A model generated the notes under the pieces. It had not been told where the DNA came from. It ran no database searches and saw nothing but the letters and a program-made list of their open reading frames with translations. Below are positions 1-64,000 of a stretch of DNA of 64,000 nucleotides, one piece after another (position 1 is the first letter of the stretch; each line of letters opens with the position of its first letter). Origin of the DNA: Escherichia phage P-GXEC-L2P5; the sequence record PQ843332.1; one strand, given 5' to 3'. Position numbers and translations under genes: made by a program.

Positions 1-66
1 TTTAAAGATATCAAGCTAATGGAGCGAATCGCGCTTGATGAAATGGCGCAACAAAACCCCGCATAA
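1..66 (+). CDS. tail assembly chaperone, C-terminal end of the frameshifted gpT-like extension (partial; 5' end outside window)
   Basis: Frame 1 reads FKDIKLMERIALDEMAQQNPA-stop; the same peptide ends the T-frame extension after the G-like chaperone at 49363-49432. Confidence 0.5.
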   Translation, partial: FKDIKLMERIALDEMAQQNPA

Positions 67-604
67 TGAAGCGGGACAAGCGGGACGTCCCGTTTTGTCC
101 CGCCCCTCAAAAACTGCATACTTATTTACTATTATTGCATAAACTAAAAGCGGGACAAGCGGGACGTCCCGATCTGGCACCCCTCTGAAAAGCGCATACC
201 TATTCAGTTTTACTGCATAAACCAAACGGGACAAAAAGCGGGACAAACAAGGGGCGGGACAAAGCGGGACAGCACCCCCGCCCCGCCAGTGCTGCCGCGG
301 GGTTTAGCCGATCGGGACAGGCGGGACAAAGCCCAGTCTTTCAGACTAGACGGGGGTCAATGGCCCCCCTCGCGCGGTTTTTAGCCGATCGGGACAGGCG
401 GGACAAAGCCCAGTCTTTCAGACTAGACGGGGGTCAATGGCCCCCCTCGTCTGAGACTGAATAAGGTTTGTTTTAAATTCGCTGATACAATGTTTCAGAC
501 TAGACGGGGGTCAATGGCCCCCCTCGTCTGAGACTGAATAAGGTTTGTTTTAAATTCGCTGATACAATGTCAACCGGCAACTGCATAAAAAAGGGGGCTG
601 CATA
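67..604. repeat. non-coding repeat module R1: GCGGGACA(A) arrays in direct and inverted orientation, GC-rich tract, repeated strong hairpin, TGCATAAA boxes
   Basis: At least 10 GCGGGACA-type 8-mers; near-palindrome GCGGGACAAGCGGGAC/GTCCCGTTTTGTCCCGC at 70-102; no plausible ORF; paralogous modules at 31353-31610 and 49433-49893. Confidence 0.7.
411..459 (+). terminator. strong stem-loop (cagtctttcagactagacggggg...cccccctcgtctgagactg), terminator-like; also at about 334-371 and 487-535 through tandem duplication
   Basis: Long GC-rich inverted repeat seen directly; no clean U-tract, so terminator function is inferred only. Confidence 0.35.
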
Positions 605-3401
605 ATGGCAGATCAAGCAGCAGGCATCACGCTAAAGGCGGATGTCGCACAAATCAGAACGGCGAATACTGTGCTTGATTCATTCGCACAGAAATCCGAG
701 AACACAGAAAACAAGGTTAAGAAATTAAACGACACACTCGGCAAATCCAAAAAGGTTACGAGTGACGCCGCGGGTGGAATGGAGAAGCTGGCGACTGAAT
801 CGCAGCGCGCCGCAGATGGCATGACGAAACAGGAGCGACTTGCCAACAGGTTAGGCATGTCGACCAAAAACCTGGGCTTTGCCTCGCGTAACGCCGCATT
901 CCAGTTACAGGATATCGCAGTTACGCTTGAGATGGGGATGCCAGTTCACCGCGTCATGCTTCAGCAGTTACCACAGCTTACCGGGGCGTTCGGTGGATTG
1001 GGTAACACGCTGCGTTATGTTGCGGGCTTCCTCGGTCCGGTAGGGATCGGCATTGCAGCACTAACGGCAACGTTAGGCGTAGGAGTGGCGGTTACGTCCC
1101 GTGCCGAAAACCAGGTCGCAGCGCTTAACAAGACGCTGGCGCTGTCGGGTAACATTTCCGGACTCACTGCAAACCAGATCCTGGTGCTATCCGAGAACGC
1201 CGAGCGCATGGGCGGGTCGTTCCGCAAGACGCGTGACACAATCCAGGCGCTGGCGGCGGCGGGTGTGAAAGCGGGTGGTGACTTCGGCGCACTGGCGACC
1301 GCAAGACGCGTGACACAATCCAGGCGCTGGCGGCGGCGGGTGTGAAAGCGGGTGGTGACTTCGGCGCACTGGGGAAGGTAGTGAATGACTTCGCGAAGGT
1401 GTCCAGCCAGCCGATCGAGGATGTGGTCGCGGCGGTGGCGAAGCTGTCAACCGACCCGGTAGGCGGCTTACGGGCATTGGCGGATAAGTATCACGTCGTA
1501 AACGAAGCGCAGATCCAGCAGGTGCAGTCACTAGTGACGGCTGGTCGCGAAACCGAAGCGGTGGCGCTGGCTAACAAAACAGCCGCGGCGTCGTTTACCA
1601 CTATGACCAACGATATTAAGTCCAACATGGGTACGCTTGAGCGGTCGATGAACGTCGTTACATCGGCAGCTAAATCTATGTGGGACGCCATCCTGGATGT
1701 GGGCCGCGCGCAGTCCTCGAATGAGTCAGAGATGAAAGCGCGTGAATCATTGCAGCGACTGACCACGGCTTACTATGCCGAGATGAAAGCGGTCAACGCT
1801 GCCGGTGGGGTGATGACCGAAGCGCAGAAAGCACGTATTAACATGCTTTATAGCGAAATGGTCGCCCAGGAGAAAGTAGTCGCGTCGCTCACCCTGCGCA
1901 ACCGTGCAGAGCGTGACAACGCCAACGCCGCGGAACAATCAGCAAAGGCGAACGAGGAGGCAAACCGCACTGCCCGCGACCGCGCCGCGTTTGAGAAGGA
2001 GTACGCAACCAACGCTAAGCGGCGCGCCGACGAGATCGCCCGCCTCAATTTGCTTAATAAGCGCGGCGTGATTGACGAGAAAGAGCTTGCCGAGGCGGTG
2101 AAGCAGGTAAACGAGCGTTACAAAGACCCCGCCCCGAAGAAGGCCGCCGCTGTTCGAGTCGATGCCGGGCTGAAAATGCTGGAAGTCGCGCGAAGCGAAC
2201 TGGCACAGCTTCGTGAGTCTGGAAAGCAGATCGAAGCCAACTCCTCGACGCAGACCCGAACGCAACGCGCTCAAGCGGCCCTAAACAAGCTGATCGCGGA
2301 TAATGAGCAGTTAATCGCAGCAAGCAAAGAAAGAGCACTAACGGCAGCAGAAAAGCAGCAGATGGTCGAATTCGGACGCGTGAAGGAAGTACGCGAGCAG
2401 ATCGTCGAAGAAGCCAAATTGCTGGACGCGAAAGAGAAGCAGGTCAAGGCGCACGCGCAGATCGACTCCTTCGTTAAGAACCAGAACGCCGAGCTAAAAG
2501 CCACCGCGGCGGGCTATGCGCTTTCCACTCGCGAAGCGGCTAACCTGCGCGAAGAATTGCAGCTAATTGACCGCCTTAAGCGGGTGGGCGCTAGTGATAC
2601 CGATATTGATCTGGCGGTGTCTAAACTGCGCGAAGTGCAGGAAGCACAGACCGGTGCTAACGCCTCACTATGGGATGGATTCAGCCGTGGGCTTAAGGAT
2701 AGCGTGGATGAAATGGGTAACGGCTATACGCAGATGACGTCACTCACAAAATTCACGTTCGGCGCTATGCAGGACACGATGAACGAGTTTTTCGAGACTG
2801 GCAAGCTGAACGCAAAGGATATGGTTAAGTCCATCCTGAGCGAATTAATCAAGCTGGCTACCTCGCAGGCGTTCAAGTCCATCGTTAGCGCTTTCGGTGG
2901 CGACGGCGGCAAAAACGGATTGTTCGGCGCTATCTTCTCGGGCCTCACCAAGAATGCGGACGGCGGAGCGTACGTGGCGACGGCGGCAAAAACGGATTGT
3001 TCGGCGCTATCTTCTCGGGCCTCACTAAGAATGCGGACGGCGGAGCTTACGCAGGGGGCAATCTCGCGGCCTATTCTGGGAAAGTGGTAAGCCAGCCTAC
3101 CTTTTTCAGTTATGGCGTCCAGGCGTTCGCTAAGGGCGCAGGATTGATGGGCGAGGCTGGTCCCGAGGCCATCATGCCGCTGAAGCGCGGGCCGGACGGG
3201 AAACTGGGCGTTGCCGCGTCTGGCGCAGGCGGTGGTATGGTCGTGACGACTAACGTTTACACGGGGACCGGTAAAACGGATACCAGTGTCAGCGGGCCGG
3301 ATCCCCGTACCGCGCAGGCGTTCGGCAAGCAAATCACCGAGGCGGTGAAGGCCGAGATCGTGAAGGCGACGAAACCGGGTGGTGTACTTTACAAACGATG
3401 A
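605..3401 (+). CDS. tail length tape measure protein (frame broken by tandem duplications near 1218-1372 and 2894-3051)
   Basis: ORFs 605-1345, 1342-3090 and 2997-3401 are contiguous; long coiled-coil Ala/Lys/Glu-rich middle; Gly-rich C-terminus; sits upstream of gpM/L/K/I/J-like genes. Confidence 0.75.
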
Positions 3402-3435
3402 TAAAATGGCCCTCACTACAACGTGGGGGCTTTTT

Positions 3436-4112
3436 ATGTCACAAGGTACAATCACACTAACGAAAGGAAGTAAGACCGTCACGGGCGCGGGAACGGCGTT
3501 CCTTAGCGAGATCGGGAAGGTACTCGTATTCGCCCGCATCGACGGCAACGACTACACCGGCAAAATTGCGGCATTCAACTCGAACACGGTCATTACTCTG
3601 AAAGATAACTGGGCCGGTCCGACGAAATCCGGTGCGGCATATGAGCTAATCGAAGCACACGACCCGCGATCAAACGAATGGCCCTATTACTGGCACCGAC
3701 GAAATCCGGTGCGGCATATGAGCTAATCGAAGCACACGACCCACGGTCAAACGAATGGCCCTATTACTGGCACATGCAATTGCAGGGCGGCGGCGACGTG
3801 CAGTTAGCTTTCCGGTCGGAGGAATTGCAATTCGGTAATGGCTACGGACAGAACATCGCGGACGGACCGAACGCAGAAACGAAACAGTTCCCCGTGCAAT
3901 TCGTCGGACTGACTACTGATAAGTGGTGCGACCCTAAACTGGTTTATAACTTTCTGCGCGGTCACTTCGTCAAGCCGTTTGTTGTCACCGCTCCAGATGG
4001 CGAAACAGGTTTATTCGTGGTCGAGCGTTCGAGCTTGTCGTACACTGACAACGGGCACTACACGGCAACTGTGTCCGCCACCCTTAAGACAGCTATTGGA
4101 TTCGTAAGATGA
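3436..4112 (+). CDS. minor tail protein, lambda gpM-like C-terminal domain (frame broken by duplication 3619-3772)
   Basis: ORFs 3379-3726 and 3678-4112; GGAGG-like RBS before ATG 3436; position between tape measure and gpL-like gene. Confidence 0.55.
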
Positions 4113-4897
4113 ATAAACTATATCGCGAGGCGACGCGCTTTGACCCATCGGGACGCGTTCGCCTGATTCACATTGACGCGCAGGACGTGGAGCCTGGCGA
4201 CGGCGCGATCGGCGCGGGCCATCACTATTTTCACTACTGCTTTATTCCGCACACTGCCGAGGATATTGCTGCCGCGGGCGGAGACGAGGACAAGCTAAAG
4301 CCCAAATCTATCTTCTTCGGCGGGCAGGAATTCGAATTCTGGCCCTTCGATTTGTCCGGCCTTAACTTCTCCACATCAACGGCAGCAGAACCGCAGCTAA
4401 CCATCGTTGATATTGGCGGCATAATCACCCGGCTGTCGCTGAATCACGACCAGCTACTGGGCGCGAAGGTTGAAATAATCGACACGTTTGCGAAGTTCCT
4501 GGATAACGGGTCGGATCCAGACCCGACGCAAAAACGTGTCCAGGAGTATTACATCGACTCACAGGTTGGGCGCAATCCAGGCAAGCAGATCACCTTCGCA
4601 TTATCCTCACCCGCGGATATGGAGGGGCAAGTAGTTCCCCGCCGCCAGATCATGAACATGTGCGAATGGGCGCTCAATGGGAAGTACGCCAGCGGGGACG
4701 GCTGCACGTGGAACCTTGCGAAGCCTGGCATCAAGTATTACGACGAGCGAGGTAATGAAGTCATCGCGATGAACATGGACCGATGCGGCGGCTGTTTGTC
4801 CGACTGTTATCTTCGATTTGGGCAAGGGCTTGCGGACCCTAAAGCGGCGGTGCTGGACTTCGGCGGCTTTCCGGGGTCCAGATTAATTAAGGGGTAG
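4109..4897 (+). CDS. minor tail protein, lambda gpL-like
   Basis: Intact 262 aa ORF; C-terminal Cys cluster CGGCLSDC; conserved position; ATGA overlap with upstream gene. Confidence 0.75.
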   Translation: MNKLYREATRFDPSGRVRLIHIDAQDVEPGDGAIGAGHHYFHYCFIPHTAEDIAAAGGDEDKLKPKSIFFGGQEFEFWPFDLSGLNFSTSTAAEPQLTIVDIGGIITRLSLNHDQLLGAKVEIIDTFAKFLDNGSDPDPTQKRVQEYYIDSQVGRNPGKQITFALSSPADMEGQVVPRRQIMNMCEWALNGKYASGDGCTWNLAKPGIKYYDERGNEVIAMNMDRCGGCLSDCYLRFGQGLADPKAAVLDFGGFPGSRLIKG

Positions 4898-4899
4898 TC

Positions 4900-5640
4900 A
4901 TGTTAACGAAGAAGGTTAAAAGCGATATCGCCGCACACGTCGCGGCATGTCTGCCGGAAGAAGCCTGCGGCCTGGTTGTCATGGTGGGCCGCAAACAAGT
5001 TTTTATCCCGTGCGTTAACGTATTCGAAGATCCTACCGGTGCGCGCTCGCGTAAGGACGCGTTTACAATCAGTGATACGGCCTGGATGGATGCTGAGGAT
5101 ATGGGCGATGTCGTTCGCGTAGTCCACTCACACCCAGGTCAGCGCGAGTTAACCCCGTCATTGGGTGACGTCAACGGCTGCAACGGCAGCGGCGTCGTCT
5201 GGACAATTACCAATGAGTATGGCGACTTTATCGAGATCGACCCGGAAGACCCGCCACTGGTGGGTCGCCGATTTGTTCTCGGAATTACGGATTGTTATGG
5301 CCTCGTTATGGACTGGCATAAAAAGCATGGCGTAAACCTGCCAGACTTCCGCGTACCGTACAACTGGTGGGAGACAGGCGAAAACCTGTATATGGACAAT
5401 TGGTATGGAGCGGGCTTCCGGGAGTGTGCGGAGAATACGCCAGGGGCGATGGTCATCATGCAGATTAGCGCGCCAGTGCCTAACCACGCCGGAATCTACC
5501 TTCCGGGCAACCAACTACTACACCATATCTACGGCAGCCTGTCGAGCGTGATCCCCTTCCGGGCAGGATTTTTCCGCGACAATGTGGTTAAATGGGTACG
5601 TCATAAAGACTTACCGTGGGATATCACAGAATGGCAATGA
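4900..5640 (+). CDS. tail assembly protein, lambda gpK-like (JAB/MPN + NlpC/P60 domains)
   Basis: Intact 246 aa ORF; HSHPGQRELTPSLGD (JAMM-like His motif) followed by Cys/His peptidase-like region; position after gpL-like gene. Confidence 0.8.
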   Translation: MLTKKVKSDIAAHVAACLPEEACGLVVMVGRKQVFIPCVNVFEDPTGARSRKDAFTISDTAWMDAEDMGDVVRVVHSHPGQRELTPSLGDVNGCNGSGVVWTITNEYGDFIEIDPEDPPLVGRRFVLGITDCYGLVMDWHKKHGVNLPDFRVPYNWWETGENLYMDNWYGAGFRECAENTPGAMVIMQISAPVPNHAGIYLPGNQLLHHIYGSLSSVIPFRAGFFRDNVVKWVRHKDLPWDITEWQ

Positions 5641-6248
5641 CCACATTTAAATTATACGGCGTCTTAGGGCGTCGTTTTGGTAAAGTGCACAAGCTGGATT
5701 GCTTCACCCCGGGCGAAGGTATCACAGGCCTATGCGTGAAGCTGCCTGGCTTACAGGACTTTCTAATGTCGGCCCACCTGGAAAATATTATGTTCAAGGT
5801 GCGCAAAGGCAATCACACAATGACCGGATACGACGAGTTAGGAGAGTTCCACGGCGACCGCGTAGTTACCATCGCACCGGTTATGACCGGCGCAAAACGC
5901 GGACTAGGCCAATTACTGGCGGGCGTAGCCATCGTGGTGGCGTCGTTCTACACCGGCGGGCTTGCTACTGCCGCTTTCGGAGCTTCCGCCGCGACCGCTG
6001 CCGCTATCGGTACGGCAACGTTTTCGTTCGGGATGTCGATGGCGCTGGGTGGCGTTATGCAATTGCTGTCACCGCAACCGAAAGGATTGCAGACACGGCA
6101 GGACGTGGATAACAAGGCGTCTTATGCGTTCGGCGGACCGGTAAACACGACCGCGCAAGGTACGGCACTTGGTGTATTATGGGGCGAGCGTGAGATCGGC
6201 GGCGCTATTATTTCCGCCGGAATCGTAACCGAGGACTTGAACGAATGA
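5631..6248 (+). CDS. tail assembly protein, lambda gpI-like
   Basis: ORF 5616-6248; N-terminal TFKLYGVLGRRFGK ubiquitin-like region, Gly/Ala-rich hydrophobic C-terminal half; overlaps gpK-like stop. Confidence 0.65.
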   Translation: MAMTTFKLYGVLGRRFGKVHKLDCFTPGEGITGLCVKLPGLQDFLMSAHLENIMFKVRKGNHTMTGYDELGEFHGDRVVTIAPVMTGAKRGLGQLLAGVAIVVASFYTGGLATAAFGASAATAAAIGTATFSFGMSMALGGVMQLLSPQPKGLQTRQDVDNKASYAFGGPVNTTAQGTALGVLWGEREIGGAIISAGIVTEDLNE

Positions 6249-6321
6249 CGATTATCTACGACGTCACAGGCCATAAAGGCGGCGGCGGCAAAGCCGGAAT
6301 CGTAACCGAGGACTTGAACGA

Positions 6322-9300
6322 ATGACGATTATCTACGACGTCACAGGCCATAAAGGCGGCGGCGGCAAACAGCACACCCCACAGGAGACGCCGGACAGCC
6401 TGCATTCGCTGGCTAAAATCCGCATCTTGCTCGCACTGGGCGAAGGTGAGTTCGAAGGCATTACCGACCCTAACGAATTACGGCAGCGCGTATACCTGGA
6501 CGGAACACCGATCCAGAACGCCGACCTGTCAGAAAACTTCCCCGGCGCGCGCGTGGAGTTCCGCCCAGGCACACAGCACCAGGACGTGATCCACGGATTT
6601 TCAGCGGTGGAAAGTGAGCAATCCGTAGGCGTAAAACTGGAAAACGGCACGCCGTGGGTGCGCCAGATTAACGACACCAGTCTTGACGCCGTGCGCATTC
6701 GAATCGGCATTCCGGCCCTGTACACCAACGAAGACAACGGCGACCTGGTGGGCGGGCGCATCGACTACAAAATCGTTGTGTATACGGACAACGCTGATCC
6801 GCGTGAGTTTACCTTCGCTGCCGTTGGTAAAACAATGTCGCTGTACGAGCGCGACCACCGCATCGAGTTACCGCCGAACGTGAATACCGGCTGGCGCGTG
6901 GAAGTTCACCGCACAACGGCAGATTCCACATCGGCGAAAGTGGTGAACGATATTCAGGTACAGTCCATCACTGAGATTATTGACGCCCGCCTGCGTTACC
7001 CGCTAACCGCGCTGTTGTTTGTGGAGTTCGACGCCAAAGCGTTCCAGAACATCCCGCGCGTGTCCATTAAGTGCAAAGGTCGCAAAGTTCTAATACCGAA
7101 CAACTACGACCCGATCAATCATACCTATGCCGGGTACTGGGACGGCACGTTTAAACGCGCATGGACGGATAACCCTGCGTGGCACTGGTACGATATTTGT
7201 ATTACTGAGCGCTTCGGCCTCGGTCGGTTAAACGCGCATGGACGGATAACCCTGCGTGGCACTGGTATGATATTTGTATTACTGAGCGCTTCGGCCTCGG
7301 TCGCCGGATCAAGCCGCAAATGCTAAACAGATATGCGCTCTACCAGATTGCGAAGCGCTGCGATCAACTGGTCAGCGACGGCAACGGCGGGCAGGAAATC
7401 CGATTTAAGAATGATATGTACATCCAGTCGCAGACCGACGCCTGGACCGTGCTTAAGGATTTAGCCGCCATCTTTGCCGGTATGACCTGGTGGGGCAACC
7501 AGATGTTGAATATTGTAAGCGATCAGCCGGTCGCAGCGGTATCGCACACTATCACCAACGCCTCGGTCATTGATGGTCGATTCGACTACGCGTCAGGGAG
7601 CCAGAAAACTCGGTATTCCACGTTCGCTGTAGCATACGGCAACCCGAAGAACCACTATGAAGATGCCATTGCTACGGGACAGCGTGTCGAACTGGTACGC
7701 CGCCATAAGATTAACCGTCTGGATATAACGGCGATCGGCTGTACGCGTGAGTCAGAAGCGCAACGCCGCGGGCACTGGGCGCTAATCTCCAACCAGCTTG
7801 ACCAGCAAGTTAGCTTTAAGGTTGGCATGGAGGGACTTTTCTTTATTCCGGGTAGTGTAGTCGCGATCGCCGATACAAACATTTCTGGCGGCTTCGAGAC
7901 ACGCGGCGGTCGCCTGTTGTCAGATCCTGGCACGCGGACTGTGCTGAACACAGACAGCGAAATCACGTTCCGCCCTGGGGATAAATTCCTGGTACGCACC
8001 GATAGCGGTAATGTGGAGACTCGCGAGATTGCCAGCGTCAACGGCAACAAGGTTACGCTAAAAACCGCACTGGACGCCGACCCGATTCCTGATCAGCCGT
8101 TTTGCGTCGATGGCAACGATATCCAGTTGCAGAAGTTCCGCATCACCGACCTGGAATATGACGACTCTACCAGCACTTTTTCAGTGCGCGGGATCGAATA
8201 CAACGATAGCAAATATGATGCCGTTGATAATGGCGCTCGCCTTGACCCAGGCATCTTTACGCAAGTTCCTGACGGCGTAATGAAGGGGCCGGAGTCCGTG
8301 ACCATTACCCCGTCGCAGATTTCATCGCAAGGCCAGCTAATCACCAACGTGGATATTGTGTTCCCGCCGGTGAAGGATGCCGTTGTTTATGAGATCCAGT
8401 GGCGACGTACCAGCTTGCAGAATATGGCGGTACAGTGGGGAAACGACTGGGTAAACATCCCCCGCACGGCATCGAACGGCGCGCACATCCCTAACGTGTT
8501 CTCCGGTAACTACCAAGCGCGCGTCCGCGCGATCGGTATGGGCGAGATTTCATCCCCGTGGGTGTCGTCCGCTATCACGCCGGTGGAAGGTCGTCTCGGC
8601 GGTCTTAACGCGCCTATCATCACCAACGCGATTTCGGGCCTTCACCAAATTTTGTGGAAGTGGAACCACAACAACGCCGCGACGGATATTTCGTACACCG
8701 AGCTTGAAGTTCGCAAGACGGGTGAAACGGAATGGAAATTCCTAACCAACGTCCCATACCCGGGGTCGGAGTATGCGCAAACGTCGCTGGAGTTCGGCAT
8801 CTATCAGCAGTTGCGCGCCCGTGTAGCGGATAAAATCGGCAACCTGTCGGACTGGTCGGCCCCGTTTGAAGGGCAGGTGAGCAGCAGTTGCGCGCCCGTG
8901 TCGCGGATAAAATCGGCAACCTGTCGGACTGGTCGGCCCCGTTTGAAGGGCAGGTGAGTGACAATGTTGACGAGTACATGAAGGGGCTGGACGACGAGTT
9001 CTTGACTTCTGAGGACGGTAAACGCTTCCAGGAAGCGATCGACACCATGCCGCAAGGCATTTATGAGGCTATGCTCACCGACGCACAGCAATTGTTTAAC
9101 GCCCGCGCCGAGTACAAGGGGATTTATGCAGAAATCTCGGTCGCGTATAACGTGGCGGCAGATGCCCACCAGGCGGTAGCGCAACTGGAAACGTTGATCG
9201 GTACTCGCCTTGACGATGCGGAAGCGGCAATCCACACGTTGCAGACCGCGCAAAGCACGCACGAGCAAGCGTTCGCCCAGTACCAACAAACTGTTGCCGC

Positions 9301-9826: not shown

Positions 9827-9831
9827 ATGCG

Positions 9832-9853
9832 AAGGGGCCATCCGGCCCCTTTT
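9832..9853 (+). terminator. rho-independent terminator (aaggggccatccggcccctttt), usable on both strands
   Basis: GC stem, short loop, T-run; sits between convergent genes. Confidence 0.6.
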
Positions 9854-10818: not shown

Positions 10819-10820
10819 TA

Positions 10821-11042: not shown

Positions 11043-11122
11043 GGTATCATCCCCTATATTTGGTTGAGTTTTAGTATTACACCGCTCAACCAGGATTGCA
11101 ACCAATTTAAGAGGATTTAGCT

Positions 11123-12901: not shown

Positions 12902-12905
12902 ATAG

Positions 12906-12930
12906 AAGGGGCCATGCGGCCCCTTTTTTA
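12906..12930 (+). terminator. rho-independent terminator (aaggggccatgcggcccctttttta), bidirectional
   Basis: Perfect GC stem plus T-run between convergent genes. Confidence 0.65.
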
Positions 12931-13580: not shown

Positions 13581-13622
13581 CGTGTGGTCCTCATTGATGC
13601 GGGCCGAAGCCCTCGATTAGAA

Positions 13623-14297: not shown

Positions 14298-14348
14298 CAG
14301 TATTACCCTTTTTAGTGAAGGGGCGGTATTGCCCCGACACGTTTACTA

Positions 14349-53152: not shown

Positions 53153-53186
53153 TAAAATGGCCCTCACTACAACGTGGGGGCTTTTT

Positions 53187-54879: not shown

Positions 54880-54881
54880 CC

Positions 54882-55622
54882 ATGTTAACGAAAAAGGTTA
54901 AAAGCGATATCGCCGCGCACGTTGCGGCATGTCTGCCTGAAGAAGCCTGTGGCCTTGTTGTCATGGTGGGCCGCAAACAAGTATTTGTCCCGTGCATGAA
55001 CGTATTCGAAGACCCGACCGGCGTGCGCTCACGCAGAGACGCATTCACGATTAGTGATATGGCCTGGATGGATGCCGAGGATATGGGCGACGTCGTGCGA
55101 GTAGTCCACTCGCATCCAGGCCAGCGAGAGCTTACACCCTCACTTGGCGACGTTAACGGATGCAACGGCAGCGGCGTAGTCTGGACCATCACTAACGAAT
55201 ATGGCGACTTTATCGAGATCGACCCTGAAGACCCGCCGCTGGTAGGCCGCCGATTTGTTCTCGGAATTACAGATTGTTATGGCCTCGTCATGGACTGGCA
55301 CAAAAAGCAGGGTGTAAACCTGCCAGACTTCCGCGTGCCGTATAACTGGTGGGAGACAGGCGAAAATCTGTATATGGATAATTGGTACGGTGCTGGCTTC
55401 AGGGAATGCGAGGAGAATACGCCGGGGGCAATGGTCATCATGCAGATTAGCGCGCCTGTGCCTAACCACGCTGGGATATTCCTTCCGGGCAACCAACTAC
55501 TACACCATATCTACGGCAGCCTGTCGAGCGTGATTCCCTTCCGGTCAGGATTTTTCCGGGACAATGTGGTTAAATGGGTACGTCATAAAGACCTACCGGG
55601 GAATATAACAGAATGGCAATGA
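54882..55622 (+). CDS. tail assembly protein, gpK-like, second copy
   Basis: Intact 246 aa ORF; about 11 substitutions relative to 4900-5640. Confidence 0.8.
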   Translation: MLTKKVKSDIAAHVAACLPEEACGLVVMVGRKQVFVPCMNVFEDPTGVRSRRDAFTISDMAWMDAEDMGDVVRVVHSHPGQRELTPSLGDVNGCNGSGVVWTITNEYGDFIEIDPEDPPLVGRRFVLGITDCYGLVMDWHKKQGVNLPDFRVPYNWWETGENLYMDNWYGAGFRECEENTPGAMVIMQISAPVPNHAGIFLPGNQLLHHIYGSLSSVIPFRSGFFRDNVVKWVRHKDLPGNITEWQ

Positions 55623-56384
55623 CCACATTTAAATTATACGGCGTTTTAGGACGTCGATTCGGTAAAGTGCATAAGCTGGACTGCTTCACTCCGGGCGAGG
55701 GTATCACCGGCCTGTGCGTGAAGTTACCCGGCTTACAGGACTTTCTAATGTCGGCCCACCTGGACAATATGATGTTCAAGGTGCGCAAAGGCGACCACAC
55801 GATGACCGGCTATGATGAGCTGGGCGAGTTCCACGGCAACCGCGTATGATGTTCAAGGTGCGCAAAGGCGACCACACGATGACCGGCTATGATGAGCTGG
55901 GTGAGTTCCACGGCAACCGCGTCGTTACCATCGCGCCGGTTATGACGGGCGCAAAAAGAGGGTTGGGACAATTGCTGGCGGGTGTCGCGATCGTAGTGGC
56001 GTCGTTCTATACGGGCGGACTTGCTACTGCCGCTTTCGGGGCTTCGGCTGCAACCGCTGCCGCTATCGGGACGGCGACGTTTTCGTTCGGGATGTCGATG
56101 GCGCTGGGTGGCGTTATGCAATTGCTGTCGCCACAACCGAAAGGATTGCAGACAAGGCAGGACGTGGATAACAAAGCGTCGTACGCGTTCGGCGGGCCTT
56201 GCTGTCGCCACAACCGAAAGGATTGCAGACAAGGCAGGACGTGGATAACAAAGCGTCGTATGCGTTCGGAGGCCCAGTAAACACTACCGCGCAAGGCACG
56301 GCGCTTGGTGTATTATGGGGCGAGCGTGAGATCGGCGGCGCTATTATTTCAGCCGGAATCGTAACCGAGGACTTGAACGAATGA
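55613..56384 (+). CDS. tail assembly protein, gpI-like, second copy (frame broken by duplications near 55790-55880 and 56150-56260)
   Basis: Collinear with 5631-6248. Confidence 0.6.
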
Positions 56385-59300
56385 CGATTATCTACGACGT
56401 CACAGGGCATAAAGGCGGCGGCGGCAAACAGCACACCCCGCAGGAGACGCCCGATAGCCTGCATTCGCTGGCTAAAATCCGCATCTTGCTTGCGCTGGGG
56501 GAAGGGGAATTCGAAAGTATTACCAGCGCCAGCGAATTGCGGCAGCGTGTATATCTGGACGGAACACCGATCCAGAACGCGGACTTGTCCGAAAACTTCC
56601 CCGGCGCGCGTGTGGAGTTCCGCCCCGGAACACAGCACCAGGATGTGATCCACGGATTTTCAGCGGTGGAAAGTGAGCAATCTGTCGGCGTAAAACTGGA
56701 AAACGGCACGCCGTGGGTGCGCCAGATTAACGACACCAGCTTGGACGCCGTGCGCATTCGCATCGGCATTCCGGCACTGTACACAAACGAAGATAATGGC
56801 GACCTGGTGGGCGGGCGCATCGACTATAAGATCGTTGTGTATACGGATAACGCCGACCCGCGTGAGTTCAGATTCGCCGCCGTTGGTAAAACAATGTCGA
56901 CTATAAGATCGTTGTGTATACGGATAACGCCGACCCGCGTGAGTTCAGATTCGCCGCCGTTGGTAAAACAATGTCGCTGTATGAGCGCGACCACCGCATA
57001 GAATTACCTCCGAACGTTAACACCGGCTGGCGCGTGGAGGTGCACCGCATAACGGCAGACTCCACATCGGCGAAAGTGGTTAATGATATCCGGGTGCAGT
57101 CCATCACTGAGATTATTGACGCCCGCCTGCGTTACCCGCTAACCGCGCTGTTGTTTGTGGAGTTCGACGCCAAAGCGTTCCAGAACATCCCGCGCGTGCC
57201 CGCCTGCGTTACCCGCTAACCGCGCTGTTGTTTGTGGAGTTCGACGCCAAAGCGTTCCAGAACATCCCGCGCGTGTCCATCAAGTGCAAAGGCCGCAAAG
57301 TTCTAATACCGAACAACTACGACCCGATCAATCATACCTATGCCGGGTACTGGGACGGCACGTTTAAACGCGCATGGACGGATAACCCTGCGTGGCACTG
57401 GTACGATATTTGTATTACTGAGCGCTTCGGCCTCGGTCGGCGTATCAAACCGCAAATGCTAAACCGATACGCGCTCTGTACGATATTTGTATTACTGAGC
57501 GCTTCGGCCTCGGTCGGCGTATCAAACCGCAAATGTTAAACCGGTACGCGCTCTACCAGATTGCGCAGCGCTGCGATCAGTTGGTCAGCGACGGCAACGG
57601 TGGTCGAGAAATCCGCTTTAAGAATGATATGTACATTCAGTCACAGACGGATGCCTGGACCGTGCTTAAGGATTTAGCCGCCATCTTCGCTGGGATGACC
57701 TGGTGGGGAAACCAAATGTTGAATATCGTCAGTGACCAACCGGTCGCAGCAGTGTCGCACACTATCACCAACGCCTCGGTTATTGATGGCCGATTCGACT
57801 ACGCATCAGTGACCAACCGGTCGCAGCAGTGTCGCACACTATCACCAACGCCTCGGTTATTGATGGTCGATTCGACTACGCGTCCGGTAGCCAGAAAACT
57901 CGGTATTCCACATTCGCGGTAGCATACGGCAACCCGAAGAACCACTATGAAGATGCCATCGCAACGGGGCAACGTGTCGAACTGGTACGCCGCCATAAGA
58001 TTAACCGTCTTGATATAACGGCGATCGGCTGTACGCGTGAGTCAGAAGCGCAACGACGTGGGCACTGGGCGCTAATCTCCAACCAGCTTGACCAGCAAGT
58101 TAGCTTTAAGGTGGGCATGGAGGGACTTTTCTTTATTCCTGGTAGCGTAGTCGCGATCGCCGATACAAACATTTCTGGCGGCTTCGAGACACGCGGCGGT
58201 CGCCTGTTGTCGGACCCTGGCACGCGTACCGTGCTTAACACGGACAGCGAAATCACATTCCGCCCAGGTGATAAATTCCTGGTACGCACCGATAGTGGTA
58301 ATGTAGAGACTCGCGAGATCGCCAGCGTCAACGGCAACAAGGTTACGCTAAAAACCGCACTGGACGCCGACCCGATTCCTGATCAGCCGTTTTGCGTCGA
58401 TGGCAACGATATCCAGTTGCAGAAGTTCCGCATCACCGACCTGGAATATGACGACTCTACGAGCACTTTCTCGGTGCGCGGGATTGAATACAACGATAGC
58501 AAGTATGATGCCGTTGATAATGGCGCTCGCCTTGATCCTGGTATCTTCACGCAAGTGCCCGACGGGGTAATGAAGGGGCCGGAATCCGTGACCATCACCC
58601 CGTCGCAGATTTCATCGCAAGGACAGCTAATCACCAACGTGGATATTGTTTTCGGCCGGAATCCGTGACCATCACCCCGTCGCAGATTTCATCGCAAGGA
58701 CAGCTAATCACCAACGTGGATATTGTATTCCCTCCGGTGAAGGATGCCGTGGTGTATGAAATCCAGTGGAGGCGTACCAGCCTTCAGAATATGGAAATCC
58801 AGTGGGGTAACGACTGGGTGAATATCCCACGCACGGCGTCGAACGGCGCGCACATCCCTAACGTGTTCTCCGGTAACTACCAGGCACGCGTCCGCGCGAT
58901 CGGTATGGGCGAGATTTCATCTCCGTGGGTGTCGTCCGCCATCACGCCGGTGGAAGGTCGTCTCGGTGGGCTTAACGCACCAATCATCACCAACGCTATT
59001 TCGGGCCTTCACCAGATCTTGTGGAAGTGGAACCACAACAACGCCGCTACTGATATCTCGTACACCGAGCTTGAAGTGCGCAAGACCGGTGAGACTGAAT
59101 GGAAATTCCTTACCAACGTCCCATATCCGGGGGCGGAGTATGCGCAAACATCGCTGGAGTTCGGAATTTACCAGCAGTTGCGCGCCCGTGTAGCGGATAA
59201 AATCGGCAACCTGTCGGACTGGTCGGCCCCGTTTGAAGGGCAGGTGAGTGACAAAGTTGACGAGTACATGAAGGGGCTTGATGACGAGTTCTTGACTTCC

Positions 59301-60339
59301 GAGGATGGTAAACGCTTCCAGGAAGCAATCAAGTTGACGAGTACATGAAGGGGCTTGATGACGAGTTCTTGACTTCCGAGGATGGTAAACACTTCCAGGA
59401 AGCTATTAACACGATCCCGCAAGGCATTTATGAGTCAATGCTCACCGACGCCCAGCAGCTATTCAACGCCCGCGCCGAGTACAAAGGGATTTATGCGGAA
59501 ATCAAGGTCGCGTATAACGTGGCGGCGGACGCCCACAAGGCGGTCGCTCAACTGGAGACGTTGATCGGCACGCGACTTGATGACGCGGAAGCTGCGATCC
59601 ACACGTTGCAGACGGCGCAGACGCTCAACTGGAGACGTTGATCGGCACGCGACTTGATGACGCGGAAGCTGCGATCCGCACGTTGCAGACCGCGCAGAGC
59701 ACACAGGAACAAGCGTTCGCCCAGTACCAGCAAACTGTTGCCGCTAAGTTCGGGGAACAGGAAGCCGCCATCCAGCAGGTACAAACGGCAACCGCAGACG
59801 TGGCGGGAGCGCTGGCGGAATATAAGACCCAGGTCGCTACACAGTTCGGTCAGCAGTCCGCCGCTATCGAGCAGAAGATGACGTCCTCGTTTAACCACTC
59901 TGGTGGTAGCGCCACGTATAGCCTTAAGGCTGGCGTGACATATAACGGGACTTATTATGATGCGGGTATGCAGCTCTCCGTCGTGACGTCTGGCAACGCG
60001 GTTAAATCGCGTATTGCGTTCAAGGCGGACCAGTTCTACATCATGCATCCGTCCAATGGGACGCTGTCGTCTGCGTTTATTGTGGACGGTGGCGCGGTGT
60101 ATATCGACACGGCACGCATCAAGAACGCGTCCATCAACTTCGCGCAGATAACAGACACGCTGCAATCGAATAACTACGACGGCAGCACGCGCGGCTGGCG
60201 CTTAGGGAAAGATGGAACGTTTATCAACCTGGGCACCGGTAGCGGCGGCGGGATGAAACAGACGAACACAAGAATCAGCGTGAAGGACGGAAACGGCGTT
60301 CTCCGCGTGCAGATTGGTGAGCTTACTGGTAGCTGGTAG
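56381..60339 (+). CDS. host specificity protein, gpJ-like, second copy with divergent C-terminal domain (fragmented by at least seven duplications)
   Basis: N-terminal about 1,000 aa collinear with 6322-9826; extra repeat block and a different last ~60 aa. Confidence 0.75.
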
Positions 60340-60375
60340 TATAGGGGCTTCGGCCCCTTTTTAACGAGGTTATTT

Positions 60376-60678
60376 ATGGCATTCGGTATCGCAACGTGGG
60401 ACGCGCAAGGACGCCCAAACAACTACGGCATTAAACCGGTAAGCGTGATCGGAAGGATTCATCTTGCGGAAGGACAAAAATCAGGCGCATGGTCATTCCC
60501 TGTACCGGCGGGGATGAAGGTCGGATACGTGGTCGCACTGGATAAAGGCGCGGTCGGGCCAGGACGCAGAATATCTGCCAGCGGGAACACTATCACGGTT
60601 TCCGCGGCAAGTGCAGTAGGTGGCGGGGTTTACTCCGCATCTGAATGTGACGTTATTGTTTTTGTGGAGCGAGCATAA
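60376..60678 (+). CDS. hypothetical protein specific to second copy
   Basis: Intact 100 aa ORF replacing the minus-strand cassette found after gpJ in copy 1. Confidence 0.4.
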   Translation: MAFGIATWDAQGRPNNYGIKPVSVIGRIHLAEGQKSGAWSFPVPAGMKVGYVVALDKGAVGPGRRISASGNTITVSAASAVGGGVYSASECDVIVFVERA

Positions 60679-61429
60679 TGGCTAATTACGGCGCGTTGAT
60701 TGACTTACCAAACGGCAACCCGTTTATCACGCCAGAATCGACGCCGTTTTGTCTCTTCCGCCGTGTGGTTGTTGGGTCTTCGGCTAACGGCACTGCGCAG
60801 TCGGCGGCTGCCGATATTAATTTGGGTGGTGACTACCCTGCAATAGCGTTTGTTAAAACTACGCACACCGCCCAGCCGACCGTCGTAGGGTCTTCTCGCG
60901 TTGGTAATGTGGTGAAGGTGAGCGCCAGCAATCCATTCGGGCAGGGCTTCACGATGACGGCTTACATCTTTGCTATATTCCCACAGACCCTTCCGCGGTG
61001 GGGCTTCGCTATTTGGGATAAGACGGGGAAGCTAGTGCTTACTAATGAGAGTCGCGTACTAAGTCCCTTCCGCGGTGGGGCTTCGCTATTTGGGATAAGA
61101 CGGGGAAGCTAGTGCTTACTAATGAGAGTCGCGTACTGAGCGATTTAGTTACCGTCGGGTCGCCTGGCGCTAACGGGGGGATTAACATTGATCAGACGCT
61201 AAACGGCAGCTACGCCGTCGCACCGGGAATATTGGGGTCTACGCTGATCCGGTTTTTTGTGCAGGGCCAGCCGCAGGTAATATCGGTAACGGCGTACACG
61301 GGGGCCAGATTTGATGGGTCGCGAACTCGTATATCGGCAGCGTCGTCGGGGAACGCCACGGGGGATGTGGTGGGGTATACTAACAACGGCAACGCGATTA
61401 TGGCGATTAACACTGCCAATTATGATTGA
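60678..61429 (+). CDS. hypothetical protein specific to second copy (duplication near 61030-61130)
   Basis: ORFs 60678-61112 and 61112-61429; ATGA-type overlap with upstream gene. Confidence 0.4.
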
Positions 61430-61430
61430 A

Positions 61431-61456
61431 GAAAGCCCCGAAAGGGGCTTATTTGC
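61431..61456 (+). terminator. bidirectional rho-independent terminator (aaagccccgaaaggggctt)
   Basis: Perfect stem between convergent genes. Confidence 0.55.
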
Positions 61457-61667
61457 AGGTTGTGCTTTTGAAATGGTCTACAGACACGTACTGGAAGCTA
61501 AACGGATAACCCGCCCTTAGCATTTTATGCCCGGAGAAGTCCGCAACACCATACACAGGTACCGCATAATCCATGCCGCTATTCTGGTATGTGGCGTCGC
61601 AGACTTTAGCGGGCATGTTGGCACAACCGGACAAAAGAACCGCACAAATCATAATTAAAGTTTTCAT
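61449..61667 (-). CDS. small lipoprotein, second-copy variant with unrelated mature domain
   Basis: Same signal peptide MKTLIMICAVLLSGC as 10821-11042; mature part ANMPAKVCDATYQNSG... is unrelated. Confidence 0.5.
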   Translation of the reverse strand: MKTLIMICAVLLSGCANMPAKVCDATYQNSGMDYAVPVYGVADFSGHKMLRAGYPFSFQYVSVDHFKSTTCK

Positions 61668-61747
61668 GGTATCATCTCCTATATTTGGTCGAGTTTCAGT
61701 ATTACACCGCTCAACCAGGATTGCAACCAATTTATGAGGATTTAGCT

Positions 61748-63526
61748 ATGGCAGCGGGCACACTATCCGTAACGAATAACAGCAAGGCGGTTGTAGGGGT
61801 CGGCACAACGTTTACCTCGTTTAACGCTGGCGACTTCTTAACGCTGGTGGTAGGACAAGTCCCCTACACCGTAGCAATCGCGTCCATTGAAAGCGAAACC
61901 GCGCTTACGCTGGTGTTGCCGTTCGACGGCCCAACGGCAACCGGCCTCGCGTGGGATGGCGTTAAGCGCGATACCATGTCACTGGCGACGATGGGTGTAA
62001 CCGTACAGGCACAGAAAGCATTGCGCTTGATGATTGCAGATGAAAACAACTGGCGTGCAATCTTCGGCGACGCTGAAGAAATCACCGTGACGCTGCCTAA
62101 CGGGCAGGTAATGCAGGGTATGTCATGGGGCTACCTGTCGCAGTTGATGAAACAGATCGACCCCGTTGAGATGCTAAACCTGCAACAACAAGCCGCCGCA
62201 TCGGAAGCAGCCGCGCAAGGATACCGCGACCAGGCCGAAGGCATTAAAACCGAGACGGCAGGCATCCGCGACGACACCAGGTTGATTAATGCTGATACGC
62301 TGGCGATCCGCAACGACACCGATGCCATCAGGACGAATACCAACCAGATTAAATCAGATACGCAGGCCATTAAGGACCAGACGAACCAGATCAAGACGGA
62401 CACCGGCGTTATTCGCGACGAAGCCAATACCGCGAAGACGGACGCGCAATCCGCCCGCGATGCTGCGCTGGGATACCGGAACGAGGCCGAACAGTTCAAG
62501 AATGAGATCGACCCGTCGAAACTTCTGGCAAAGGCCAACAACCTTAGCGACGTTGCCGACCCCGCGGCAGCGCGCGACCACTTAGGCATCGGGCCTGACG
62601 ACACCCTTAACCTTGGTGGCCTGGTAACGTCCGGCAGTATCTCCGCGGGCCGCAACACATGGGATGGGTCTAACTGGGGGAGCCAGGGACTTCTCGCCTC
62701 ATTAGTGGTCCTATACCCGGACGGAAGCTCAGCCCCAGGCTTATACGTGCGAAAATCCAACGGCGACAGCGGATATGCGGCGGGATGGTTGTATAACGAG
62801 AACAGTATCAGTTGGGCTACTAACGCGCGTATTGCGGGCTTTCAGTTCCGGTCCCCTAAAGGCGCGATGGGGTATAACCAGCTATGGTCAGAGGCTGTGG
62901 TGCGTGCGGACGACTTCATGGCACAGAATGGCGCGGAAAACTATAAGTCGTTAATCGCGGGGGCCGCTACAACGCAAGGTCACGGATACTCGGGCGGTGT
63001 CTCGTTCGGGATAATGACAACTGGCATAAACAACTGGCCCCGGGCGCAGATCTCGATCGGCACAGCAGACCGTGACGCCGCTGGGAATATGGCTTCGCAG
63101 ATGCACTTCCGCTTTAATGAATATGGGCAGATTTCTTACACAGGGCCACTGGGGACGGGGTCGTTCCAGCAAGTACCTGCGTCGGATCGCAACCTGAAGC
63201 ATGACATTGCCGATGACGCAAGCAGCACCGCCTACGACAATATCAAGGCTTTGCGGTTCCGCACGTTCGTATTCAACAACGATGAACAGGAACGGCAGCG
63301 TCGCGGTATTATTGCGCAGGAAGCGGAAGAAATCGACCCGCTGTATGTGAAGCACCGCGTGTATAACAATCACGAATTAAATGGGCCTCTGGTGCACCAG
63401 CTTGAACTGGATACGACACCGCTGTTACTCGACACTATGCGAGCGTTGCAGGATACGATTAAGCAGGTGGAGGATTTGAAGGCGGAGATCGCAGCGATGA
63501 AGCAGGCGGAAGAGTTGAAGAAATAA
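61748..63526 (+). CDS. tail fibre protein, second copy, with different distal domain and same type of C-terminal chaperone
   Basis: N-terminal about 300 aa collinear with 11123-12901; distal domain non-homologous; C-terminal ...RRGIIAQEAEEIDPLYVK...DLKAEIAAMKQAEELKK. Confidence 0.7.
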   Translation: MAAGTLSVTNNSKAVVGVGTTFTSFNAGDFLTLVVGQVPYTVAIASIESETALTLVLPFDGPTATGLAWDGVKRDTMSLATMGVTVQAQKALRLMIADENNWRAIFGDAEEITVTLPNGQVMQGMSWGYLSQLMKQIDPVEMLNLQQQAAASEAAAQGYRDQAEGIKTETAGIRDDTRLINADTLAIRNDTDAIRTNTNQIKSDTQAIKDQTNQIKTDTGVIRDEANTAKTDAQSARDAALGYRNEAEQFKNEIDPSKLLAKANNLSDVADPAAARDHLGIGPDDTLNLGGLVTSGSISAGRNTWDGSNWGSQGLLASLVVLYPDGSSAPGLYVRKSNGDSGYAAGWLYNENSISWATNARIAGFQFRSPKGAMGYNQLWSEAVVRADDFMAQNGAENYKSLIAGAATTQGHGYSGGVSFGIMTTGINNWPRAQISIGTADRDAAGNMASQMHFRFNEYGQISYTGPLGTGSFQQVPASDRNLKHDIADDASSTAYDNIKALRFRTFVFNNDEQERQRRGIIAQEAEEIDPLYVKHRVYNNHELNGPLVHQLELDTTPLLLDTMRALQDTIKQVEDLKAEIAAMKQAEELKK

Positions 63527-63528
63527 GA

Positions 63529-63555
63529 GAGGGGCCATACAGCCCCTTTTTAGTT
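63529..63555 (+). terminator. rho-independent terminator (gagaggggccatacagcccc + ttttt)
   Basis: Stem-loop plus T-run after tail fibre gene. Confidence 0.55.
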
Positions 63556-63626
63556 TGAGTTTTCCCAGTCCATTTTGCGCCGCACCAGCGGGCTTTCGTA
63601 ATATTCCTTCCCCTCCACTTCCATTT

Positions 63627-64000
63627 TTAGTTTGAGTTTTCCCAGTCCATTTTGCGCCGCACCAGCGGGCTTTCGTAATATTCCTTTCCTTCCACTTCCA
63701 CCAAAGGCCAGTCGTTCACAATCACGTATGGCTCCGCGATATCCTCAATCACGCCGTGCGCGCTTTGCGGCCCTAACGACACACCAACCAGGATAACACC
63801 GGCAACGCGACGGGTCAGATATTCGCGAGCGCAACGTGCCTCAACCAGCCCACGACGGATGCCGCTGGTGGCCTTAACCTCGTAGGCCCATACGGCATCA
63901 ATCATGTGTTCTTTGTAGTCAGGGCCGGACTTAACCTTGCGCTTGCCGACCATGATAATATCGCCGCGGTCGATAGTGTTAGCGCTAAACAGGCCAGTAC
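63627..64000 (-). CDS. hypothetical protein, homologue of 12928-13580 (partial; 5' end beyond window; duplication near 63550-63680)
   Basis: ORF 63627-63953 closely matches 12928-13254. Confidence 0.3.
   Translation of the reverse strand, partial: TGLFSANTIDRGDIIMVGKRKVKSGPDYKEHMIDAVWAYEVKATSGIRRGLVEARCAREYLTRRVAGVILVGVSLGPQSAHGVIEDIAEPYVIVNDWPLVEVEGKEYYESPLVRRKMDWENSN

Follow-up and report, generated by a model that had tools for sequence, protein, structure and literature searches.

A 64-kb stretch of Escherichia phage P-GXEC-L2P5 DNA (PQ843332.1; all 64,000 nt were analysed and are called 'the window' here) carries the 3' end of a tail assembly chaperone gene, a repeat module and the start of a tape-measure gene twice, at 1-605 and again at 49366-49894. 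The original prediction had noticed this pair and read it as a complete unit of ~49.3 kb followed by the tail module of a diverged relative, offering three origins: a tandem prophage pair, a concatemer from a mixed population, or a composite sequence. What kind of molecule, if any, does the window represent? We put the probability at roughly 0.88 that it is a computational composite and not a physical DNA molecule, namely a path through the assembly graph of mixed strains (k = 77), written with its overlaps untrimmed. About 82 short pieces, drawn from several E. coli phages that are close relatives within the genus Dhillonvirus, are chained into it, amounting to 1.28 rounds of a ~45 kb phage map, with a 77-base overlap left at each join. 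Since a 77-base overlap was kept at every join and the 1.28 rounds run through several related phages, the feature is an assembly artefact, with no real biological feature behind it.

A scan for tandem repeats with periods of 20-140 bp returned a period of 77 alone (89 exact runs). Across the whole window lie 81 tandem duplications, each of exactly 77 bp and with 0-7 mismatches between the copies: 13 are exact, 33 carry one mismatch, 22 carry two and 13 carry three to seven. A constant length of this sort, 81 of 81 at 77 nt, would be expected of untrimmed graph overlaps. The duplications share no common sequence, each being the local sequence repeated. They are the key feature of the window and had been overlooked in the original prediction. 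Their first copies start at:

296, 416, 1222, 2897, 3619, 6216, 7148, 8805, 13193, 13835, 14003, 14461, 14863, 15231, 15677, 16815, 17100, 17457, 19040, 19311
23978, 24067, 24847, 26334, 26724, 27762, 28311, 28899, 29920, 31160, 33422, 34062, 34235, 34522, 34960, 35560, 36580, 38437, 39222, 39403
39726, 40050, 40387, 40929, 41335, 41628, 42317, 42758, 43182, 44841, 45339, 45947, 46492, 47038, 47328, 48918, 49203, 49730, 50097, 50663
51114, 51577, 51940, 52155, 52571, 52886, 53292, 53470, 53681, 54079, 55768, 56122, 56820, 57121, 57401, 57727, 58577, 59253, 59545, 60984, 63547

Four places illustrate how the pieces meet:

6216..6369: exact 77 + 77 junction, where the I-like tail gene meets the J-like one
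6268-6317: junction-spanning string AGGCCATAAAGGCGGCGGCGGCAAAGCCGGAATCGTAACCGAGGACTTGA
24055..24143: shortest stitched segment, 89 nt (77 + 12), between junctions 23978 and 24067
53470..53623: two-haplotype junction; left copy exact to phage JL1, right copy exact to phage Pride, 4 mismatches

The 50-mer across the 6216..6369 junction had no match in IMG/VR, GTDB genomes or JGI metagenomes, a second junction-spanning 50-mer had none in IMG/VR, and two ORFs reading through junctions are not on record. Period-77 duplications numbered zero in four reference genomes and six independent contigs, as against 82 scored in the window; the natural tandem repeats of JL1 have periods of 54, 90 and 21, all multiples of 3. 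Every 77-bp duplication shifts a reading frame, and the raw tape measure is split into 246 + 582 aa. Removal of one copy of each restores the tape measure (880/880 aa), the portal (506/506) and the end-to-end match of each gene with its homologue in Sodalis phage SO-1; the longest ORFs after this collapse span 1156, 1133, 894, 894 and 777 aa, and alignment of the collapsed sequence to the references gives HSPs that span 13.9-21.3 kb and contain 6-9 gaps. Absence from real genomes and rescue of genes upon removal are both as graph overlaps would have it. The first ~49.3 kb, held to be complete in the original prediction, contain 57 frameshifting duplications that break ~30 genes, the interrupted essential ones including terminase, portal, major head, tape measure and primase-helicase.

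The repeat itself is genuine. Positions 1-13378 (lap 1) are collinear with 49366-64000 (lap 2) at 90.7% nucleotide identity over 10,357 aligned nt after the 77-bp clean-up, in the following arrangement:

1..66, + strand: 3' end of the tail assembly chaperone T-like part, lap 1; SO-1 gp16 homologue, homologous to 49366-49431
67..604, + strand: repeat region A, lap 1; non-coding, with a GCGGGACA array, a natural 79-nt direct repeat at 69-234 and a GC hairpin
605..9823, + strand: lap 1 tail module, with six junctions inside; SO-1 protein matches are full-length after collapse
605-3398, + strand: lap 1 tape measure
3436-4109, + strand: lap 1 M-like gene
4109-4894, + strand: lap 1 L-like gene
4900-5637, + strand: lap 1 K-like NlpC/P60 gene
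5631-6322, + strand: lap 1 I-like gene
6322-9823, + strand: lap 1 J-like tip gene
9856..12898: lap 1 receptor cassette
9856-11042, - strand: lap 1 DUF6453 membrane protein and lipoprotein
11123-12898, + strand: lap 1 lateral tail fibre
12931..31349: replication and modification genes (methyltransferases, helicase, DNA polymerase, SSB, exonuclease, primase-helicase)
20611-23796, - strand: DNA polymerase
28857-31349, + strand: primase-helicase
31429..31604, + strand: repeat region B, with GCGGGACA six times; related to region A and equivalent to SO-1 repeat_region B
33597..49428, + strand: lysis, phosphoesterase, terminase, portal, head, tail-shaft and chaperone genes
36743-38774, + strand: small and large terminase
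38789-40691, + strand: portal, with 5 junctions
48601-49428, + strand: chaperones
49433..49893, + strand: repeat region A, lap 2; 384 nt lengthened by a single artefact junction (49730)
49894..64000: lap 2 tail module, including M/L/K/I-like genes
49894-53149: lap 2 tape measure, with 8 junctions
56381-60216: lap 2 J-like gene, with 7 junctions
60179-61619: lap 2 Pride-type cassette
61685-63526: lap 2 lateral fibre ORF
lap 2 gp26 homologue, - strand, interrupted by the window end

Much of what had been described for the two copies was borne out. Collinearity extends through the tape measure, the M/L/K/I-like genes and most of the J-like gene; the proposed 4-5% divergence in the K-like protein corresponds to 95.5% identity to its SO-1 counterpart in lap 2 versus 100% in lap 1; and the receptor regions part ways as claimed, 9639-10994 and 60179-61619 being unrelated and the lateral fibre proteins 49.9% identical. 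Because the copies differ at ~9% of bases, and with unrelated receptor cassettes, the earlier rejection of a terminal redundancy of one genome also stands. The 49.3 kb genome unit does not: the distance separating the copies moves from 49,289 to ~50,700, since the laps hold different numbers of artefactual duplications, and the raw period of ~49.3 kb becomes 44,976 bp once one copy per duplication is removed, as compared with reference genome lengths of 43,457-45,169 bp. Nor is there a single junction near 49.4 kb. There are 81, and the point at 49,432/49,433 belongs to a single segment (49280-49806) with 99.2% identity to JL1 along its whole length, the JL1-like haplotype being unbroken there.

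The 'repeat module' of the original prediction is the repeat_region A already annotated in SO-1, with a true length of 384 nt that two artefact junctions (296, 416) inflate in lap 1. Scanning region A for promoters and terminators gave weak consensus hits only. Across the whole window no Rfam family reached its gathering score, so neither an RNA in region A nor a group I intron within the polymerase gains support; for the polymerase Pfam reported DNA_pol_A alone, neither an intein nor an HNH domain being detected at default cut-offs. A search for cos with the cohesive-end sequence of EE09, ATCTTAAGGG (PMC10673088), gave no exact match in the window; three one-mismatch hits turned up, as against 2.3 expected by chance.

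All parts of the window show 90-99% identity to Dhillonvirus records, each query matching 158-340 records; the ICTV guideline for a genus is ~70% or more nucleotide identity across the genome. The genome size (~43.5-45.3 kb) and gene order of the genus emerge only after removal of the artefact, with 42 of 42 tested SO-1 proteins then in SO-1 order. By closest relative, the window falls into four blocks:

493..24054: SO-1-like; long segments at 99.5-100% identity to Sodalis phage SO-1 alternate with short ones at 96.7-98.9%
24055..40126: nothing close in GenBank, where no phage exceeds ~94% overall; 85-97% per segment to the four references
40127..52647: JL1-like, mostly 99-99.9% per segment; uninterrupted across the apparent unit boundary at 49366
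52648..63623: Pride/Lust/Gluttony-like, mostly 98.5-99.8% per segment

SO-1 (NC_013600, Dhillonvirus SO1) is 98.5-100% identical to 493-24054 per long segment and shares with the window its gene order, repeat regions A and B and a 1062-aa DNA polymerase with an insertion, but is 45,169 bp long and free of 77-bp duplications, the rest of the window belonging to other genotypes. Escherichia phage JL1 (NC_019419) matches 40127-52647 at 99-99.9%, and after collapse a single 21,276-nt HSP with 6 gaps aligns to it. Of Pride, Lust and Gluttony (KX534341, KX534338, KX534336), the first two match 52648-63623 at 98.5-99.8%, with the receptor cassette and fibre of Pride type among the matching parts. Each of these phages is a single genome of ~42-45 kb, whereas the window splices JL1-like to Pride-like sequence. 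Genotype switches fall at 77-nt junctions throughout, and the JL1-like to Pride-like switch lies inside the tape-measure gene. The second tail module is a divergent copy, as had been proposed, but does not come from one diverged relative; it is itself a chimera, JL1-like to 52647 and Pride-like thereafter. A splice of GenBank records alone is ruled out by the 24-40 kb stretch.

Differences from the references sit 79% at third codon positions and are 78% synonymous, indicating pieces that are real strain sequences; those between the pieces are likewise mostly synonymous, hence natural strain variation. Random noise or sequencing error behind the overlap mismatches is ruled out by values of 67-79% at third codon positions and 75-78% synonymous.

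The most likely route to the window starts with several closely related Dhillonvirus genotypes in the sequencing data or contigs, which would have been split into short unambiguous segments, in the way that a de Bruijn assembly graph (k = 77) breaks at its forks. Writing a path of such segments end to end, with the 77-nt overlap between neighbours unremoved, would leave a 77-bp tandem duplication at each join. On a circular phage map a second pass can take another strain's branch; the path would hence stay unclosed after one lap and continue for 0.28 lap more. We infer that the segments are graph edges, that k was 77, a standard SPAdes value, and that some program left the overlaps in. At 89 nt, only slightly longer than k, the shortest segment has the length typical of a small edge in a de Bruijn graph, and many stitched segments measure only 200-400 nt; the longest (4388, 4667 and 2563 nt) lie in strain-specific DNA, namely the receptor cassette, the polymerase insertion and the fibre. 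Between genotypes, the 77-mers at junctions differ less than random ones do (median of 4 versus 8 differences, p = 2e-8), as graph forks would give, which favours the graph walk. Where laps 1 and 2 can be compared at homologous coordinates, 1 of 9 lap-1 junctions coincides with a lap-2 junction (P = 0.2), which gives no visible sign of forks common to both laps.

A plain de Bruijn graph yields exact k overlaps, but only 13 of 81 overlaps here are exact, the other 68 carrying 1-7 natural-variant mismatches. These are one-sided: in the JL1-like run deviation occurs only at the start of the right segment, and in the SO-1-like and Pride-like runs only at the end of the left segment. A concentration of errors near segment ends was considered as the cause, but the enrichment is mild (1.0-1.1% versus 0.71% in the interior) and leaves the one-sidedness unaccounted for. 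Given 68 mismatched, one-sided overlaps, a strict de Bruijn path alone is insufficient and an extra step is needed, for example approximate end joining, post-join polishing or directional bait-and-extend.

The mismatched overlaps also lend some weight to another artefactual origin, in which contigs from several isolates or samples, ending at k = 77 forks, were tiled by hand or along a reference and pasted without overlap removal. Overlaps with up to 7 mismatches cannot be graph adjacencies and could be homologous contig ends placed by position, and three blocks differ by 0.1-1.5% from three phages in GenBank whose laboratories are unrelated. We regard such tiling as improbable: independent contig ends would not yield exactly 77 nt at all 81 joins, the 89-nt segment and the many of 200-400 nt lie below the contig size usually kept, and the 24-40 kb block has no close GenBank record. 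Less probable still is a physical head-to-tail heteroconcatemer of two Dhillonviruses, formed by mixed infection and recombination in rolling-circle replication, with only the 77-bp duplications artefactual. The head-to-tail order is that of replication concatemers and the JL1-like haplotype does cross the lap boundary unbroken, but any circular map equally predicts that continuity, and genotypes switch at artefact junctions instead of at the unit boundary or a recombination hotspot. At least 68 joins link ends that disagree, so linkage across any join is untrustworthy. Replication from one template should give near-identical units, and these differ by 9%; no public contig >50 kb with the exact gpL-like protein was found among 100 collection blocks, and packaging of unit-length DNA with cos ends has been reported for a related phage (PMC10673088), which we count against a concatemer.

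Composite sequence and mixed-population concatemer, as origins offered at the outset, thus pointed in the right direction; the tandem prophage pair is refuted. Two collinear, diverged copies head to tail are what neighbouring prophages in a bacterial chromosome would look like, but no host DNA lies between or beside them, the map being continuous phage sequence. Integration in a host chromosome would entail host flanks, attachment sites and an integrase. The annotations of SO-1, JL1, Pride and Lust contain no integrase, published Dhillonvirus isolates are described as lytic, and the search for contigs >50 kb gave nothing here either. Megablast with the tail region returned no hit for the lineage in 72,556 plasmids (PLSDB) or 5,426 complete E. 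coli genomes; the latter result rules the pair out, its probability being negligible. Equally negligible is a biological origin of the 77-bp duplications as mobile-element footprints or products of replication slippage, which has nothing in its favour beyond their existence: 77 is not a multiple of 3, essential genes are interrupted, all relatives examined lack them, and no sequence is common to them, each repeating its own surroundings.

An untrimmed composite has partial precedents among assembly errors. De Bruijn assemblers such as SPAdes leave k-length terminal direct repeats on circular contigs, and circular genomes can give over-extended ('wrap-around') contigs. Like the latter, the window overruns its own start, with a repeat length equal to a standard assembler k (77); unlike them, its wrap covers 12.8 kb of a different strain and not k identical bases, and in contrast to terminal repeats it carries the k-length repeat internally 81 times, mostly mismatched. 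Inter-strain chimeric contigs in mixed-strain metagenome assembly are described in, for example, the Haploflow and PenguiN papers; there, close strains likewise lead to graph forks and haplotype-switching paths. In ordinary chimeric contigs overlaps are trimmed and reading frames intact, unlike in the window.

The value of the window is for quality control only. Such a record would score as a 'phage' of 64+ kb whose size is inflated and ~30 of whose genes are broken, with seeming tandem repeats and a seeming duplication of the tail module, and could seed false claims of tandem prophages, heteroconcatemers, pseudogenised phages or new repeats. Its signature is easy to screen sequence collections for: many internal tandem duplications of one fixed length that equals an assembler k and is not a multiple of 3, with frames restored by their removal.

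It is conceivable, if rather unlikely, that part of the walk, freed of its 77-bp artefacts, reflects a genuine undescribed Dhillonvirus, given the low GenBank identity of the block at 24-40 kb, which holds SSB, exonuclease, primase-helicase, region B, lysis genes and terminase; the first lap might then be a natural recombinant that joins an SO-1-type tail and polymerase to a JL1-type head.

Self-BLAST of the window revealed positions 1-13378 to be collinear with 49366-64000, in pieces of 77-96% identity, with the 3' end of the chaperone gene, the start codon of the tape measure gene and a non-coding repeat module between them present both at 1-605 and at 49366-49894. The two collinear copies noted in the original prediction (here lap 1 and lap 2, the first and second passage round the circular phage map) are present, so that its observation is confirmed in part; what had gone unreported are dozens of adjacent ~77 bp duplications spread over the full window. 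When exact tandem runs of at least 30 nt were sought at each period from 20 to 140, period 77 alone returned any (n = 89). Consolidation left 81 junctions, each a directly repeated 77-nt string (13 exact, 33 with one mismatch, 22 with two and 13 with three to seven), spaced 89 to 4,667 nt apart with a median near 500. One of the 82 segments between them, 24055-24143, measures only 89 nt, that is, 77 + 12. No period-77 duplication was found in four complete Dhillonvirus genomes or six independent metagenome and isolate contigs, against 82 scored in the window. In Escherichia phage JL1, natural tandem repeats recur every 54, 90 or 21 nt, all numbers divisible by three.

As 77 is not divisible by three, every duplication causes a frameshift. 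Uncorrected, the tape measure gene is broken into two ORFs (246 and 582 aa); fragmentation also affects the portal, terminase, primase-helicase and J-like (gpJ-like) genes. Removal of one copy per duplication changed the longest ORFs from 1069, 623 and 602 aa to 1156, 1133, 1069, 894, 894 and 777 aa, and 42 of 42 tested proteins of Sodalis phage SO-1 aligned essentially full length (tape measure, 1-880 of 880; portal, 1-506 of 506). The collapsed sequence comprises 57,763 nt, and its HSPs with reference genomes span 13.9-21.3 kb with only 6-9 gaps. Judging by the ten control sequences and the frame repair on collapse, the duplications belong to no viable genome; a biological origin is excluded, as they disrupt the frames of essential genes and occur in no relative examined.

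Collapse also brought the repeat period to 44,976 bp, a normal length for a Dhillonvirus genome, the apparent 49.3 kb containing an excess of 57 x 77 = 4,389 bp. Because the two laps differ in their number of junctions, the uncorrected distance from one copy to the other varies, starting at 49,289 and reaching ~50,700. Once cleaned, they are 91.3% identical over 8,718 nt with 3 gaps, and 90.7% across all 10,357 aligned positions.

Every part of the window matches Dhillonvirus, the genus of HK578-like E. coli siphoviruses with genomes of 43.5-45.3 kb. Cutting at the junctions and comparing each of the 82 segments by BLAST with SO-1 and the Escherichia phages JL1, Pride and Lust resolved four blocks.

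Genotype blocks of the window
493-24054, SO-1-like: long segments at 99.5-100%, alternating with short ones at 96.7-98.9%
24055-40126, poorly matched: none of SO-1, JL1, Pride and Lust close; identity to any GenBank or INPHARED phage at most ~94%
40127-52647, JL1-like: mostly 99-99.9%
52648-63623, Pride/Lust-like: mostly 98.5-99.8%

Within segment interiors, 79% of the differences from the best reference fall at third codon positions and 78% are synonymous; for the terminal 77 nt, the figures are 67% and 75%. These differences are natural strain variation, the third-position and synonymous bias ruling out sequencing error or added noise as their source. At junction 53470, the left copy is that of JL1 and the right that of Pride, with 4 mismatches, so that the ends derive from different haplotypes; the copies at junction 54079 differ at 7 positions. 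Junction 77-mers are better conserved across genotypes than random ones, at a median of 4 versus 8 differences from the second-closest reference (p = 2e-8), and the longest segments hold strain-specific DNA (receptor cassette plus fibre, an SO-1-specific polymerase insertion, a Pride-type fibre). This break pattern is the one expected of a mixture of close relatives split at assembly-graph forks.

We consider it highly probable (roughly 0.88) that the window is a path through short mixed-strain assembly segments whose 77-nt overlaps were left untrimmed. A mixed-strain assembly would have been broken into short segments, and a path then written out with its overlaps kept. Uniform overlap length, a segment of k + 12 and breaks that fall at conserved k-mers point to de Bruijn assembly at k = 77, a standard SPAdes value. 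On a circular map, with the branch of a different strain to follow the second time round, the path would have overrun its start unclosed, adding another 12.8 kb of cleaned sequence. The anatomy of the window lies in the data themselves; we infer that a graph was used, at what k, and with which kind of software. Sixty-eight overlaps are inexact, with mismatches confined to one side: along the JL1-like run (junctions 40050-52155) the left segment's end is JL1-exact and the right segment's start deviates, while the SO-1-like run and the Pride-like run (junctions 52571-63547) mirror this, the left segment's end deviating. A strict de Bruijn graph does not account for such overlaps; approximate end-joining, post-joining polishing or directional bait-and-extend could each yield them. 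The GenBank record of JL1 lies on the strand opposite to the window and those of SO-1 and Pride on the same strand, a match with the mismatch side that may be coincidence. The side-flipping is a possible fingerprint of faulty software.

The mixed population and composite sequence entertained in the original prediction proved apt, the genotypes forming a patchwork that switches at 77-nt junctions. Its third option, tandem prophages, is excluded: host DNA is absent from the window, the tail region is unmatched in 5,426 complete E. coli genomes and 72,556 plasmids, no integrase is annotated in SO-1, JL1, Pride or Lust, none of the 100 collection blocks with an exact copy of the gpL-like protein lies on a contig >50 kb, and isolates of the genus are described in the literature as lytic. 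A physical heteroconcatemer is improbable, with nothing to support it: linkage is unreliable over any of the 81 joins, genotype switches sit at artefact junctions, and packaging of unit-length DNA that has 10-nt cohesive ends is reported for a related phage (PMC10673088). The cos sequence of that phage was not recognisable anywhere in the window. With the laps diverging by 9%, terminal redundancy is ruled out as well. Nor does the join proposed at 49,432/49,433 mark a discontinuity: the JL1-like block continues uninterrupted across 49366-49433, segment 49280-49806 being 99.2% JL1 throughout, and the 'second copy' is itself chimeric, switching from JL1-like to Pride-like within the tape measure gene. 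The feature is an assembly artefact made of ordinary, already known phages, and its sole value is as a quality-control signature.

The laps also differ by a swap of the receptor cassette.

Receptor cassettes
9639-10994, minus strand: lap 1, SO-1 type; DUF6453 membrane protein and lipoprotein
60179-61619, plus strand (two small ORFs): lap 2, Pride type; plus a cor-like gene

Identity between the lateral tail fibres (11123-12898 and 61685-63526) is just 49.9%, yet each terminates in an intramolecular chaperone domain of the Peptidase_S74 type. Such exchange of host-range modules is ordinary inside the genus.

Against an expectation of 3.3, the window holds 27 copies of GCGGGACA, grouped at 71-405, 31443-31545 and 49436-49693, within two repeat regions (A and B) that the GenBank entry of SO-1 already marks.

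Repeat regions
67-604: region A, lap 1, separating the chaperone gene from the tape measure gene
31429-31604: region B, following the primase-helicase gene
49433-49893: region A, lap 2, separating the corresponding two genes

In lap 1, artefact junctions lengthen region A from its true 384 nt to 538 nt; in lap 2 it reaches 461 nt for the same reason. A 79-nt direct repeat at 69-234 is natural. Shortly upstream of the tape measure ATG lie a GC-rich hairpin (AGACGGGGG..CCCCCCTCGTCT) and, after it, TGATACAAT. Compared with lambda-like tail operons, a 384-nt non-coding gap between chaperone and tape measure is unusual. Regions A and B are a conserved, already known non-coding feature of Dhillonvirus and no evidence for a genome end; could they serve as an origin, a regulator-binding array or an internal promoter?

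The DNA polymerase ORF (20608-23796, minus strand, 1062 aa) stays open through a ~300-aa insertion; the JL1 and Pride polymerases have 763 aa. In the SO-1 record this insertion, with its HNH endonuclease (gp39), is labelled a 'type I self-splicing intron'. Rfam returned no group I intron in the polymerase and Pfam only DNA_pol_A. Intein, in-frame intron and domain insertion are all candidates.

The poorly matched block at 24055-40126 encodes SSB, exonuclease, primase-helicase, small early genes, lysis genes, terminase and part of the portal, and includes region B. It might contain an undescribed Dhillonvirus genotype, though the stitching makes linkage unreliable. Dhillonvirus records also carry unlikely hosts (Sodalis, Acinetobacter baumannii, Campylobacter, Salmonella); the genomes so labelled are 91-98% identical to E. 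coli phages, and the labels may reflect contamination or mis-assignment.
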